From: a virus
Virus genome (UHGV): UHGV-0020097
Reading direction: 5' to 3' (one strand)
Length of the DNA: 33,631 nucleotides
Position 1 is the first letter of the stretch; each line of letters opens with the position of its first letter. This document shows, piece after piece, positions 5,558-9,212 of this stretch. Made by a program: the position numbers and the translations under genes. The notes beneath the pieces are model-generated. The model did no database searches. It worked only from the letters and a program-made list of their open reading frames with translations, and had not been told where the DNA came from.

Positions 5558-5791
5558 ATGCATCAGGATATCAAAGAGTACAGAGCCGGGAACCGTTGCG
5601 CGGCGTATTCACTGGGAGCGTCAAGAGCTGAACAGCGCGGTGATTATGCTGAGGCTGAAAAGCTGTGGCGTAAGGCAGCACAAAGCCCGTGTAGCACCCT
5701 GCGCCGCATCTGGGCTGAACATCGTGCGGAGTTCTGCGCTAACGCTCACCTGAAGGGATGGAGGCCACGCCATGAATGCGAAGAACTTTAA
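5558..5791 (+). CDS. Small ANR-like regulatory protein (putative)
   Basis: 77 aa from ATG at 5558 (in frame with tracked ORF 5468..5791); pattern RAEQRGDYAEAEKLWRKAA...W...RAEFC resembles the ANR family as recalled. Confidence 0.45.
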   Translation: MHQDIKEYRAGNRCAAYSLGASRAEQRGDYAEAEKLWRKAAQSPCSTLRRIWAEHRAEFCANAHLKGWRPRHECEEL

Positions 5792-5963
5792 TAAGTTATA
5801 TCCGCCTGGTACTCGTTTCATGCACATTGCACATCAGGCAGTGCGTGGTGGGCGGGTGGTAAAAACTGTTGCACCGGCCAGAGATTTTAAATGTGGTTGT
5901 GTGGTTGAAATTAATGTCGAGCCTTATTTCGTAAAAGTCGAAACACTGAAAGCAGCGCATTAA
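5772..5963 (+). CDS. Hypothetical small protein
   Basis: 63-aa ORF overlapping the previous gene's end; no motif recognised. Confidence 0.35.
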   Translation: MNAKNFNKLYPPGTRFMHIAHQAVRGGRVVKTVAPARDFKCGCVVEINVEPYFVKVETLKAAH

Positions 5964-5994
5964 TTTAATTCGTTTTTAATTGTTATTTAAAACA

Positions 5995-6028
5995 GGCGTA
6001 AACCCGCCGGGGCTGGCTTACGCCTGAA
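5995..6028. terminator. Stem-loop CAGGCGTAA-(16 nt)-TTACGCCTG; a T-rich tract follows only when read on the minus strand
   Basis: Perfect 9-bp inverted repeat seen in sequence; the flanking AT-rich run precedes it on the + strand, so the orientation is unusual. Confidence 0.3.
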
Positions 6029-6045
6029 TCTGAGGAAGTTTATTT

Positions 6046-6228
6046 ATGAATATCGCTAAGCAAAAAAAATTCGCCCGCGAAATTAATCTGACAATCGTTT
6101 GTTTTAATCGTCTTGCGACCAGTTCTCAATCAACAGCAGATGTTCATTCAGCGCCGCAGCCAGAACGAGCTCCCCACGCTCCTGAAGGCCGTGCCGGAAG
6201 TTGCGTAATTCAGAATTCAGGATGCTGA
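6046..6228 (+). CDS. Hypothetical small protein (doubtful)
   Basis: 60-aa ORF with GAGGA RBS about 9 nt upstream, but the product is low-complexity. Confidence 0.3.
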   Translation: MNIAKQKKFAREINLTIVCFNRLATSSQSTADVHSAPQPERAPHAPEGRAGSCVIQNSGC

Positions 6229-6241
6229 GGTTCAGACGACC

Positions 6242-6952
6242 ATGAAAGATAAATACATTGCCAAAATCAAAAAGCTGTTACGCCTTGCCAGAGGGACATC
6301 AAGCCCGGAAGAAGCCGCTAACGCTATTGCAAAAGCCCAGGCTTATATGCGCCAGCATGGCATCAGCGAAAACGACGCTGAATTGTTCGACATTCAGGAA
6401 GCCGCCAGCGCGGGTGCGCCGAGTGACGCCAGTACGCCGCCGCGTTATATGCACATCCTGTGTGACCTGGTCTGTAAAGCCTTCGGTGTCGAGTGTTACA
6501 TCTCCGGCGAATACCGGGCTTCTGGTTCACTCAAACGTTACGTGCGTTTTTATGGTTCTGACAGCCGCCCGGAAATTGCGGCCTATGCGTTTGATGTGCT
6601 TTCCCGTCAGATGATGGCAGAGCGCAAGAAATATCAGGATAAACACTGCAAACGTTGTGGTCCGTCCACGCGGGTAGCCCGTGGCGACCAGTTCTGCGAA
6701 GGCTGGGTCTTTGGTGCCCGTGATGTCATTGCGGTGTATGACGTCTCCCCGGAAGAAAAAAGCCGCCTTGAGCTTTACAGAAAGAACCTGCACAGCACTA
6801 AGGGACTGCGCGACGGGGATATGCGCACAGCTAAAGCGTGTCGGGGTGCAGAGTTTGCCGCTACTGCTGGTTTTATCGCCGGGAAGAACGCCAGGCTGCA
6901 TCAGGGGGTTAATGGTCAGAGCAACAGACCGCTGGCACTGGGGAGGGTGTAA
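6242..6952 (+). CDS. Phage protein with DUF2786-like N-terminal domain
   Basis: 236 aa; N-terminus KIKKLLRLARGTSSPEEAANAIAKAQAYMRQHGIS matches the DUF2786 pattern as recalled; C-terminal half has several Cys (CKRCGP...FCEGW). Confidence 0.6.
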   Translation: MKDKYIAKIKKLLRLARGTSSPEEAANAIAKAQAYMRQHGISENDAELFDIQEAASAGAPSDASTPPRYMHILCDLVCKAFGVECYISGEYRASGSLKRYVRFYGSDSRPEIAAYAFDVLSRQMMAERKKYQDKHCKRCGPSTRVARGDQFCEGWVFGARDVIAVYDVSPEEKSRLELYRKNLHSTKGLRDGDMRTAKACRGAEFAATAGFIAGKNARLHQGVNGQSNRPLALGRV

Positions 6953-6954
6953 CG

Positions 6955-7182: not shown

Positions 7183-7403
7183 AAATTGAATTTTATGACC
7201 ATGGGGTCACCGCAACTATCACTATTTCTTGTTGGTTCTGGGAGTTCCACCGTTACTTCAGAGTTGTAGATGCTGCGCTGTTTGTTGCACCGGGAGCGTT
7301 ACATCACAGTGGAATCGGTATTGTTATGAACACTGTCATCAGCGGTAAAACGGTCCCGATGTTGCGGGCGTTTAAAGTGGCAAAACAGGAGGCGGCGCAG
7401 TGA
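7179..7403 (+). CDS. Hypothetical early protein
   Basis: 74-aa ORF translationally coupled on both sides. Confidence 0.4.
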   Translation: MKIEFYDHGVTATITISCWFWEFHRYFRVVDAALFVAPGALHHSGIGIVMNTVISGKTVPMLRAFKVAKQEAAQ

Positions 7404-7564
7404 ACCAGCAAACCAGAATAAGCGATAAGAGTCTGACCAGACTGATTGCCGATGCGGACAAGGTGCTGGAACGGAACACACCCGTTGCCGATGAGGAATG
7501 GTGGCAGGATTTCCGGGCTGCAATGCTGGAACTTCAGGAACGTCGTCGGGAGGAGTTGAAGTGA
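7400..7564 (+). CDS. Hypothetical small protein (54 aa, GTG start)
   Basis: GTG at 7400 overlaps the upstream stop; its TGA at 7562-7564 overlaps the next GTG (GTGA). Below the ORF-track size cut-off. Confidence 0.3.
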   Translation: MNQQTRISDKSLTRLIADADKVLERNTPVADEEWWQDFRAAMLELQERRREELK

Positions 7565-7830
7565 GTGAATTAAAGTGTCGAATTAATGGCAATCAGATAG
7601 AACCGTGTGCGGTACTGGCAAAAGCACTCGAATATGGAAATCCAACCTTTAAGAGTAAAGGCATATTTATCCCGGAACGCGTGAATATAAACACTGGCGA
7701 GCCAGGCTTAGACATCGCTCAAATTCACTCCGGTCAATATGTCGGTCGTGGTGTTGCAATGTGTTTTTGCCCGTTCTGTGGTGAAAGTCTGAAAACATGG
7801 AAAAAGGAGGCAACCAGTGAGCGAGATTAA
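7561..7830 (+). CDS. Small protein with C-terminal zinc-ribbon-like motif
   Basis: About 89 aa from GTG 7561 (in frame with tracked ORF 7498..7830); paired Cys in CRINGNQIEPC and CFCPFCGESL. Confidence 0.45.
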   Translation: MSELKCRINGNQIEPCAVLAKALEYGNPTFKSKGIFIPERVNINTGEPGLDIAQIHSGQYVGRGVAMCFCPFCGESLKTWKKEATSERD

Positions 7831-8419
7831 CTATCAGGCACTGCGTGAGGTGGCAGAGGCCGCGAAGGGAGATATGACGTGGCAGAACCTACAGGCTTTT
7901 CGTGCTGCGGCTACGCCGGAGGTTGTGCAGGCGCTGTTGGATGAAAACGAAAGAATGTGTCGTGACCTGATAGCTCGTAATGGTGAGATTGAAGTGCTTC
8001 GGAAGTGGGCAGAAGAACTGGAGGCACGGGAGGTGGCTTTGCCAGTAGCATCATGCATTGTTGAAGATGGGGAAATGTGTATTGACGGGTTCGGTGAGTA
8101 TGTGGGTCACTCGCTGCCTGATGGAAGGCATGAGCTTTATGCTGCCCCTCCAGCGCCGGTAGTGCCGAAAGCAGAGCCGATAGCAGTAAGCGACGACATG
8201 GCTTACGCATTCCATCACGCACTGTCAGATTCATCGCCAGGTGCTGATGAGGTAGAGGAAATTAAGACAGGGTTGCGTGCTGCCTTTGCCAATGTCACCG
8301 TCCAGCCGGTGCTGATAGTGCCGGATGAAATCGAGCCAGACGATAGCAATACGTTTGATTATGTTGATGGCTGGAACGCCTGCCGCGCGGTCATGCTTCA
8401 GGGGAAAGGAGGTGCGTAA
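7817..8419 (+). CDS. ead/Ea22-like protein (acidic early protein)
   Basis: 200 aa, GTG start preceded by AAGGAGG; N-terminus YQALREVAEAA...PEVVQALLDENERM resembles ead/Ea22-like proteins of lambdoid phages as recalled. Confidence 0.55.
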   Translation: MSEINYQALREVAEAAKGDMTWQNLQAFRAAATPEVVQALLDENERMCRDLIARNGEIEVLRKWAEELEAREVALPVASCIVEDGEMCIDGFGEYVGHSLPDGRHELYAAPPAPVVPKAEPIAVSDDMAYAFHHALSDSSPGADEVEEIKTGLRAAFANVTVQPVLIVPDEIEPDDSNTFDYVDGWNACRAVMLQGKGGA

Positions 8420-8592
8420 TGCGTGTTGCGTTTATCGGTTTATTACCATACCCGACTCGTTTTTGGGCTTCTGCGTTAATTGCAAAGCCGCATGTCCTGA
8501 TGGCAGGCAACATCATCCCGGCACCAAGGCGCCATACCGGTATTGCAGCTGCACGACGTGCAGCAAAGAAACGCAGGAGAGCAAAACGATGA
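8419..8592 (+). CDS. Hypothetical small basic protein (57 aa)
   Basis: ATG overlaps the upstream stop (TAATG); AAAGGAGG RBS at 8405-8412; ends KKRRRAKR. Below the ORF-track cut-off. Confidence 0.4.
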   Translation: MRVAFIGLLPYPTRFWASALIAKPHVLMAGNIIPAPRRHTGIAAARRAAKKRRRAKR

Positions 8593-8774
8593 AAAACCGT
8601 AAAGCAAAAATTCTGTTAGCTCGAAGAAACGGTGTTGGGGTCTGGCGATGGTTGAGGATTAGTAACAGACGAGTGAGGTTGACAGGGTGTTGCGGGGTGA
8701 TGGGACACAGTTGTTGCAAAAAGCCCAGCGCGGCACAAAACCGCTGGAGGAATCACGGAGCAACAACACGATGA
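8589..8774 (+). CDS. Hypothetical small basic Cys-rich protein (61 aa)
   Basis: ATGA overlap with the upstream gene; internal start within tracked ORF 8325..8774; motif CCGVMGHSCC. Confidence 0.35.
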   Translation: MKNRKAKILLARRNGVGVWRWLRISNRRVRLTGCCGVMGHSCCKKPSAAQNRWRNHGATTR

Positions 8775-8956
8775 AAACTATCACTGTAACGGTTGAAATC
8801 GACGTTCCTGATAACGCAACGGACAATGATATTGCTGATTTTGTCGATGTCGAGTATGGGGAGTGCGGAAAAATGGCACTTGATAACCCATGCCGGACAG
8901 ATGGAACGGAAATACTCGATGCCAGATGGGAACACGGACCTGATTACGCGGGGTGA
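8771..8956 (+). CDS. Hypothetical highly acidic small protein (61 aa)
   Basis: ATGA overlap with the upstream gene; sequence MKTITVTVEIDVPDNATDNDIADFVDVEYGE... is rich in Asp/Glu. Confidence 0.45.
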   Translation: MKTITVTVEIDVPDNATDNDIADFVDVEYGECGKMALDNPCRTDGTEILDARWEHGPDYAG

Positions 8957-8960
8957 AAAG

Positions 8961-9212
8961 ATGAGATGGGTTGACATTTTTATTATCGCTCTGATTGCTA
9001 CGGGTATTGCGCTTTGTGTGACAACTAACAAGGCTTCTGATGATGCGGAAAATGGGCATTGCGTGGTAAAGAGAAATTTCATCAAAACCATTACGCATTG
9101 TGATGATGGAAGCGCCACCATGACCAGCGGGGATAAGTTTATTTATTGCTCTGCGGGGAAAAATGGCACGCCATCATGTCATGAAGTGACGCTCGGTGAT
9201 GGTGATAAATAA
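8961..9212 (+). CDS. Hypothetical membrane-anchored Cys-containing protein (83 aa)
   Basis: N-terminal hydrophobic segment WVDIFIIALIATGIALCV; AT-rich relative to neighbours. Confidence 0.45.
   Translation: MRWVDIFIIALIATGIALCVTTNKASDDAENGHCVVKRNFIKTITHCDDGSATMTSGDKFIYCSAGKNGTPSCHEVTLGDGDK

Follow-up and report, generated by a model that had tools for sequence, protein, structure and literature searches.

A two-tier chain of small genes, headed by an rnr-type regulator gene, in the putative early operon of a Mu-like prophage

We analysed a viral sequence of 33,631 nucleotides, UHGV virus genome UHGV-0020097 (hereafter the window), the whole of which is a Mu-like transposable prophage of Escherichia coli; the genes of the region studied here (5558-9212) lie on the plus strand. 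This region is probably the distal part of a Pe-type early operon, a counterpart of the semi-essential region of phage Mu that would be read as one polycistronic transcript and whose content falls into two tiers. As judged from sequence comparison, the left half (5558-7182) is lineage-linked with the Mu-like backbone across Enterobacterales and the right half (7179-9212) is a mosaic of exchanged cassettes. The first gene is the ortholog of an experimentally characterised regulator of enteropathogenic Escherichia coli (EPEC), Rnr.

In the region, 12 credible plus-strand genes are found, named below by “g” and their start coordinate where they have no other name (g5772, for example, is the gene at 5772-5963). 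Five junctions are 4-nt ATGA or GTGA overlaps (7179/7182, 7400/7403, 7561/7564, 8589/8592 and 8771/8774) and one is a 1-nt TAATG overlap at 8419, all of which had been reported in a preliminary description of this DNA. Two overlaps are longer (20 nt at 5772/5791 and 14 nt at 7817/7830), and short gaps separate 5556/5558 (1 nt), 6952/6955 (2 nt, where the same description had placed an overlap) and 8956/8961 (4 nt). Good ribosome-binding sites had been claimed for several genes; a purine-rich, Shine-Dalgarno (SD)-like motif lies within 18 nt upstream of every start, and is of the GGAG type at seven. The chain itself is thus as described, but it had been put at about 14 small open reading frames (ORFs), two more than we find credible, and it is broken by a 278-nt gap. 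As a control, ORFs of at least 50 residues were counted in 300 dinucleotide-preserving shuffles of 5558-9212. ORFs cover 97% of the real plus strand; in the shuffles, mean coverage is 49% and the highest value 79%. A script detects 8 stop/start-overlap junctions, where the shuffles average 0.36 and never exceed 4. On the minus strand of the real sequence, ORF coverage is 68% and 1 junction is counted. The packed chain is real and non-random, yet its appearance is normal for a phage early operon.

All 12 genes match a PHROG family and, apart from the recognised genes, these families are without known function; six minus-strand ORFs inside the region (80-124 residues) match neither Pfam nor PHROG. 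Coding status was assessed by counting variants in homologous DNA at codon positions 1/2/3, and third-position excess is seen for rnr (4/4/35), the DUF2786 gene (4/3/42), g7179 (11/13/39), g7400 (3/4/19) and g8419 (6/9/22); for g7561, g8771 and g8961 the variants are too few for this test. A long ORF at 8325-8774, annotated as a 155-residue protein in Stx2-86 and matched by phrog_12350, was rejected over the 8419-8589 stretch because the variants there sit at position 3 of g8419, which is position 1 of the long frame. In contigs identical to the window (L094-L097), automatic gene callers disagree on an ORF at 6046-6228 and on g6955, g8419 and g8589, and g8771 is sometimes called in an 89-residue, GTG-start form to which homologs give no support.

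The gene that opens the chain, rnr (5558-5791), starts 1 nt past the DUF3164 stop codon and encodes a small protein (77 residues, 9.0 kDa) of the ANR (AraC negative regulator) family. The NCBIfam model NF033650 (ANR_neg_reg) matches the product with 56.9 bits versus a cut-off of 32 (E 1.3e-15). Window Rnr is identical at 73 of 77 positions (95%) to the product of E2348C_2635 (rnr) of EPEC E2348/69, the flanking genes being alike, and all four substitutions fall within the last 9 residues. The rnr locus that Rodriguez-Valverde et al. deleted and studied in EPEC (PMC10148876) corresponds to 6159-6392 of L001, the prophage locus of E2348/69, i.e. 2,721,409-2,721,642 of FM180568. ANR proteins are smaller than 10 kDa and carry the signature A10, E14, A22, W26, A29, W43 and R47 (PMC4983702); all seven residues are present here, as A21, E25, A33, W37, A40, W52 and R56, together with F59 and C60 and with a loop shorter by 2 residues. 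The mass is that of ANR clade 2, and rnr of Citrobacter rodentium (ROD_02851) is equal in length (234 nt). The label “unknown function”, which the preliminary description had given to the whole chain, therefore fails for this gene.

In EPEC, Rnr (RegA-negative regulator) represses the locus of enterocyte effacement (LEE) and PerA/bundle-forming pilus (BFP), modulates H-NS and is interchangeable with Aar; its deletion in the lysogenic strain alters about 500 transcripts, LEE/BFP expression and adherence (PMC10148876). An rnr mutant of C. rodentium, in which the gene sits in a predicted phage region, colonises mice to a greater extent (PMC4038620). ANR proteins have no DNA-binding domain and bind AraC-family activators and H-NS (PMC5570504). 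Phage is nowhere mentioned in the EPEC study (PMC10148876); its location in the window makes rnr an inherent part of the probable early operon in a lineage of Mu-like prophages. A tblastn search for ANR among 50,697 phage records gave no match, and the gene is known only from prophages; a word-indexed homolog search returned only 12 close matches. ANR genes hold the same slot in Mu-like prophages of non-pathogenic genera, among them Photorhabdus, Xenorhabdus, Pantoea and Kosakonia, which argues for a phage-centred role.

The division into two tiers emerged from tblastn comparison with 80 DUF3164-anchored Mu-like prophage loci of species-representative genomes, ranging from Photorhabdus to Pseudomonas and Neisseriaceae. 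The left-half genes recur across many genera, in 13-30 of the 82 DUF3164-anchored loci counted in all: ANR in 14 loci, g5772 in 25, DUF2786 in 30 and g6955 in 13 (GemA is found in 48 and Mor in 36); for the genes from 7179 to 9212, only E. coli relatives match. The gene that usually follows DUF3164 directly is ANR where ANR is present and g5772 where it is absent, so that ANR looks like an insertion fixed in a sub-lineage. A survey of 5,426 complete E. coli genomes found the left half in 58, of which 56 carry it at a coverage of at least 80%. For the right half, 659 genomes have pieces of it, as do plasmids, with a best coverage of 59% and never 80% or more. The right half is hypervariable among prophages that are otherwise 90-99% identical, and relatives carry DUF4752, DUF7448, XF1762 and other cassettes at its position. 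Natural presence and absence among relatives suggests that the right-half genes are dispensable.

The right-half pieces turn up in diverse company. g8589 is found alone in the 9NA-like phage AVIO78A, and the stretch 8169-8748, comprising the C-terminal half of the Ead gene, g8419 and g8589, is 87-91% identical on non-mobilisable plasmids of about 95 kb (230 records). Found in E. coli, Klebsiella and Salmonella, these plasmids (L098) are probably phage-plasmids; their own chain of small ORFs (DUF4752, ead/Ea22, DUF551, ASCH) resembles that of the window. In the collection of 50,697 isolated-phage records, only short pieces match the region 5558-9212; the identical arrangement was recovered from at least 23 contigs of public draft or metagenome assemblies.

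Among the recognised right-half genes is that at 7817-8419, which encodes a 200-residue Ead/Ea22-like protein of net charge -22. PF13935 matches residues 2-82 (53.1 bits versus a cut-off of 27, E 7e-14). The C-terminal half is different: residues 120-197 match only phrog_12449 and phrog_5117, and among PDB chains, at E values up to 10, this half finds chance ankyrin matches only and not the lambda Ea22 C-terminal domain (CTD). In lambda and Stx phages, Ea22 is reported to be made early, to form a tetramer and to favour lysogeny (PMC7093339), and its CTDs vary between phages (PMC10834534). For this gene too the label “unknown function” is weakened, by its membership in the Ead/Ea22 family. A sharply bounded 56-bp segment at 7803-7858 comprises the ribosome-binding site and the first 14 ea22-type codons. 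Several hundred records of lambdoid phages, that of lambda among them (30354-30396), contain it at about 90% identity, while its flanks, and with them the rest of the gene, do not match. In the light of established work on lambdoid mosaicism, 7803-7858 looks like a conserved boundary segment that may promote recombinational exchange of cassettes, and it is a likely recombination joint.

The remaining backbone genes of the left half are g5772, the DUF2786 gene and g6955. g5772 (5772-5963; phrog_5591), which overlaps the 3’ end of rnr, encodes 63 residues predicted to fold as a small SH3/Tudor-like beta-barrel; a specific identity was sought, and only the generic SH3-like barrel was found, with no particular relative. 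The gene at 6242-6952 encodes a 236-residue protein with two Pfam domains, DUF2786 (PF10979, 49.2 bits versus a gathering threshold of 23.9) and DUF7168 (PF23771, 101.8 versus 25.5), for which the AlphaFold model is confident (pLDDT, the predicted local distance difference test score, 88). Neither the DUF2786 nor the g5772 profile has a significant match to solved structures, and a literature search for DUF2786 function returned nothing useful. The same architecture is found on 58 plasmids. In Salmonella pSGI4 (L093), an integrative and conjugative element (ICE) of the SPI-7/SGI4 type, the DUF2786 core gene (6983-7705) adjoins genes for ParB and a DnaB-type helicase, a location which hints at a role in maintenance of the element’s DNA rather than in evasion of host defence. 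g6955 (6955-7182; phrog_9400, E 2e-39) encodes a basic protein of 75 residues with a YD/Rhs-repeat-like motif, RFYDSVGRRI. In an exhaustive search, relatives were found in 18 representative clusters only (E ≤1e-3), two of them giant multi-repeat proteins, and the gene is not called by the Prokaryotic Genome Annotation Pipeline (PGAP) in E2348/69.

The gap in the chain, a non-coding stretch at 5964-6241, holds the remains of a minus-strand gene. In E2348/69 (L001, 6705-6923 region) and in strain F163 (L084), an intact 72-residue gene is present; alignment to both shows that the window lacks 169 bp, which carried the start and the first third of this gene. What is left are the last 44 codons, without a start codon (6104-6241, minus strand), and the intrinsic terminator of the decayed gene, a hairpin at 5993-6026 followed on the minus strand by UUUUAAAU. 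On that strand the hairpin has a folding energy of -24.2 kcal/mol (z -4.9) with the U tract next to it; on the plus strand, it has -19.2 kcal/mol (z -1.9), lacks a U tract and is not terminator-like. The plus-strand ORF at 6046-6228 (60 residues), which matches neither Pfam nor PHROG, was rejected as a gene, being antisense of the remnant, and it is for this reason that the chain is interrupted for 278 nt. In a genome that shares the 169-bp deletion (L085), PGAP calls this antisense ORF a gene.

The right half begins with g7179 (7179-7403, 74 residues; phrog_1001, E 2e-29), joined to g6955 by an ATGA overlap, with homologs of 36-49% amino-acid identity in 16 phage records that include Salmonella phage Fels-1 and Klebsiella phages. 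g7400 (7400-7564, 54 residues; phrog_14672, E 6e-34) has a homolog in Yersinia phage vB_YpM_39, and is followed by g7561 (7561-7830, 89 residues; phrog_4030, E 2e-29), each beginning in a GTGA overlap. The g7561 product has five cysteines, with a C-terminal CFCPFC, and a variant in a related locus (L083) that is 53% identical keeps the tail FCPFCGESLKTWKKEATSE; no match was found among PDB sequences, and an identity as a TraR/DksA-type zinc finger, by analogy to lambda orf73 upstream of ea22, received no Pfam support.

After the Ead gene come two adjacent, very basic peptides, g8419 (8419-8592, 57 residues, +14; phrog_13831, E 3e-36; TAATG overlap) and g8589 (8589-8774, 61 residues, +16; phrog_1380, E 1e-29; ATGA overlap), both with an isoelectric point (pI) of 12 and neither with an acidic residue. 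g8419 follows ea22 in phiV10, Stx2-86 and PhiR49_2. Its C-terminal motif RHTGIAAARRAAKKRRR is seen again in Mu-like prophages from Aquitalea, Trabulsiella and Chromobacterium. The coding status of g8589 is the least certain among the twelve; its relatives keep their ends in frame (MKNRKAK...SAAQNRWKNHG) around a variable middle with in-frame indels, and in phiV10 and in E. coli prophages paralogs of the family stand in tandem. g8771 (8771-8956, 61 residues; phrog_8773, E 5e-47; ATGA overlap) is acidic (net -11, pI 4.05) and is also present in L084 and in another relative (L002). The last gene before the gap that follows, g8961 (8961-9212, 83 residues; phrog_8391, E 2e-44), has an N-terminal hydrophobic segment (residues 5-21) and a four-cysteine tail, and its copy in L002 is 97% identical. 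Neither g8771 nor g8961 has a match in the PDB.

Within the 80-nt gap ahead of g9293, gemA and mor lies, at 9243-9289, a palindrome with a perfect 12-bp stem, GCAGACCAAAACATATGTTTTGGTCTGC (-23.6 kcal/mol, z -5.1), together with a third copy of ATGTTTTGGTC. The triple is also present in L002 and L083, and in part in L084 and L001. At the end of the accessory region, it could bind a protein or, as RNA, serve in processing or stability.

How might this region work? In the model that we favour, a single long early transcript (ner-A-B-kil-...-gemA-mor) would span it, and ribosomes would read the twelve small genes serially, re-initiating at the overlapping or abutting stop and start codons. Rnr would bind AraC-type activators and H-NS and not DNA. 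The right half would have been built by recombination at gene boundaries from cassettes of lambdoid, phiV10-like and 9NA-like phages and of the ~95-kb plasmids, and its cargo would comprise the Ead/Ea22-type, presumably lysogeny-biasing protein, the two very basic peptides, the acidic peptide and a membrane-anchored, cysteine-rich peptide. The products may act by protein-protein or protein-nucleic-acid binding and so retune host transcription and the lysis-lysogeny decision. Consistent with this model, junctions and SD motifs greatly exceed what shuffles yield, promoter-like sites in 1-11500 number 6 versus 12.1 in shuffles, no plus-strand promoter is predicted inside the region, and the only plus-strand terminator-like sites in it are weak stems of 5-6 bp within the DUF2786 gene. 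No Rfam family matches anywhere in the window.

Several observations weigh against this model. The prerequisites of coupling, overlaps and abutting codons, are seen; however, none of the genes lacks an SD-like motif of its own, which makes independent initiation possible, and both the single operon and translational coupling are properties that we infer from the sequence. The strong hairpin in the 278-nt gap could attenuate or process the transcript. g8589 shows weak third-position bias (21/19/30) and is not called by gene finders in any of four identical contigs. Retuning of host transcription draws on two genes, since 9 of the 12 products are without a functional assignment. Finally, the phenotypes of the rnr deletion were obtained in a lysogen, which implies expression under repression and speaks against strictly Pe-driven expression. 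Leaky Pe/Pe*-type transcription is known for Mu, in whose lysogens low-level transcripts of the semi-essential region are made (PMC3820752); leakage of this kind, shown for Mu and not for this phage, would account for the phenotype.

Three other explanations were weighed against the early-operon model. Expression in the lysogen is the core of one of them, according to which the region is a lysogenic-conversion (moron) cluster whose genes are active in the repressed prophage and chiefly serve the bacterial host, rnr adjusting virulence and colonisation. The EPEC and C. rodentium rnr phenotypes (PMC10148876; PMC4038620) and the low-level transcription in Mu lysogens (PMC3820752) fit this idea, as does the former presence at 5993-6241 of an opposite-strand gene with its own terminator, a typical moron layout. 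However, this sole true moron-like unit is deleted in the window, all 12 genes share one orientation and merge with the early operon, no promoter or terminator of their own being predicted, rnr lies only 1 nt from DUF3164, and the ANR position is kept in the prophages of non-pathogenic genera. We therefore hold a moron cluster to be possible but doubtful. Much less credible, and in our judgement very unlikely, is that several of the small ORFs are not genes and that the chain is partly an artefact of open frames in conserved DNA. One such ORF, 6046-6228, is demonstrably spurious, codon-position evidence is weak for g8589 and too sparse for g7561, g8771 and g8961, gene callers disagree on g6955, g8419 and g8589, and PHROG families may themselves derive from annotated ORFs that are not real, as phrog_12350 illustrates. 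These points are set against an ORF coverage above the maximum of any shuffle, an SD-like motif at every start, minus-strand ORFs without family matches and, for ANR, g5772, DUF2786, g6955, g7179, g7561 and g8589, divergent protein homologs (36-69% amino-acid identity) with in-frame indels.

The third possibility is an anti-defence island, in which the majority of the small proteins, above all those encoded in the mosaic right half, would be the first to be expressed upon infection or induction and would inhibit host immunity (restriction-modification, CRISPR, RecBCD or abortive infection). Early position and small gene size, hypervariability among otherwise near-identical prophages and promiscuous exchange of cassettes between unrelated phage types are all compatible with such a function. 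So are the extreme charges of g8771 (-11), Ead (-22), g8419 (+14) and g8589 (+16), which recall known mimics of DNA or proteins that bind nucleic acids, and the fact that no Gam homolog was detected, owing to which some other end-protection function may exist. Against it, no product was assigned to a defence or anti-defence family in Pfam, NCBIfam or PHROG (Ocr, ArdA, KlcA, Ral, Gam and anti-CRISPRs included). PADLOC, whose models are of defence and not of anti-defence systems, gave one marginal match, of g6955 to E2 (E 0.0036), which was dismissed. The products queried individually against PDB sequences gave nothing significant, and the structure models, which cover two of the 12 products, match no known anti-defence fold. 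Little can be read into a missing family match, since families do not exist for most anti-defence proteins. Both genes with characterised relatives are regulators and not immune inhibitors. By their family assignments, the recognisable genes are regulators of host transcription or of the lysogeny decision, and one is a backbone gene that also occurs in the maintenance modules of ICEs. None of the products resembles an enzyme, as the preliminary description had also noted. Overall, these comparisons give no positive support to the anti-defence function that the same description had linked to this position, and an island devoted to it seems unlikely.

A bolder reading, possible but doubtful, is that Rnr-type ANR proteins are primarily early products of a Mu-like prophage lineage spread over Enterobacterales, with a phage-centred native role. 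By neutralising H-NS, and perhaps also regulators of the AraC type, they would lift the silencing of the phage’s early promoter and reset the host upon induction. What has been described as anti-virulence activity in EPEC and C. rodentium would, on this view, stem from leaky expression of the early operon in a resident prophage, and at least one of the charged g8771, g8419 and g8589 products would be a new anti-defence nucleic-acid mimic or binder. For annotation purposes, the region is a routine phage accessory region: rnr is already characterised, the Ead/Ea22 family has been studied, and the remaining genes are conserved hypotheticals. Its significance lies elsewhere. An EPEC virulence regulator that has been studied as a chromosomal gene is embedded in what appears to be the early operon of a Mu-like prophage, which alters the view of its regulation, of its spread from strain to strain and of its “purpose”. 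This placement provides a testable link between ANR proteins, H-NS and the induction of transposable phages, and the split into two halves marks the genes that are likely needed for the transposable life style (g5772, DUF2786/DUF7168 and g6955) from those that are optional cargo.

The surroundings of the region follow the Mu plan. Upstream, on the same strand, lie genes for a Mu-type transposase (1461-3503), a MuB-like ATPase (3522-4415) and a Kil-type septation inhibitor (4415-4654; phrog_2679), a 71-residue gene and, directly before the region, the DUF3164 gene (4912-5556). Downstream, also on the plus strand, a 92-residue gene (g9293) is followed by gemA (9543-9938; PF06252) and mor (10373-10840). 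The preliminary description was correct in placing the region between the MuB-like gene and gemA. The DUF3164 gene occupies the spot of Mu’s early accessory genes and is kept in all 82 related loci. No homolog of Gam, the host-nuclease inhibitor, was detected anywhere in the window, and DUF3164 might provide an equivalent function. The closest annotated relative of the window is the prophage of EPEC E2348/69 (L001), at 95% identity over a query coverage of only 78%. This copy disrupts the ethanolamine-utilisation gene eutC (L001, 257-694), as expected of random Mu-type transposition.

Compared with phage Mu, the region has the same genome position, after A, B and kil and before gemA and mor, and the same strand as the semi-essential region. 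The packing style is alike, the Mu junctions measuring -1, -14, -4 and -8 nt, and in both cases the genes are largely uncharacterised, with presumably dispensable functions (PMC3820752). The likeness does not extend to the genes: none of the 12 products matches a Mu semi-essential protein (gp6-gp15) or Gam at E <0.01 in tblastn and phmmer searches, and the window, unlike Mu, has no Gam homolog but the DUF3164 gene upstream. Even the transposase shares only about 29% identity with that of Mu, over the sole segment detected (85 residues), and MuB 32% over 214 residues. Because there are no homologous genes, the analogy is positional only. The earlier proposal of a Mu-like semi-essential region is thus borne out in position and in the hypervariability of the right half, and not in gene homology to Mu.

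A second likeness is to the exo-xis (ea) region of lambdoid phages, an early chain of small overlapping ORFs that act on the lysis-lysogeny decision (PMC7093339, PMC3824215) and to which the chain in the window can be likened. The 5’ boundary and N-terminal domain of ea22 are common to both, and the two small basic ORFs that come after the ea22-type gene of the window also come after ea22 in phiV10, Stx2-86 and PhiR49_2. Counterparts of lambda orf60a, orf61, orf63, the TraR-like orf73 and ea8.5 were sought in the region and received no Pfam assignment, and tblastn of g7179, g7400, g7561, g8419 and g8589 against the lambda locus gave no match. Unlike the lambdoid original, the ea22-type region of the window lies in a transposable phage, and the CTD of its product is unrelated in sequence to that of lambda Ea22. 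The third likeness reaches beyond phages. DUF2786/DUF7168 genes of SPI-7/PAPI-1/SGI4-type ICEs, and of many phages, share the two-domain architecture and the length of the window gene; that of the ICEs stands in a ParA-DnaB-ParB maintenance module and that of the window in a phage early operon, and in both settings it is a conserved backbone gene of the mobile element.

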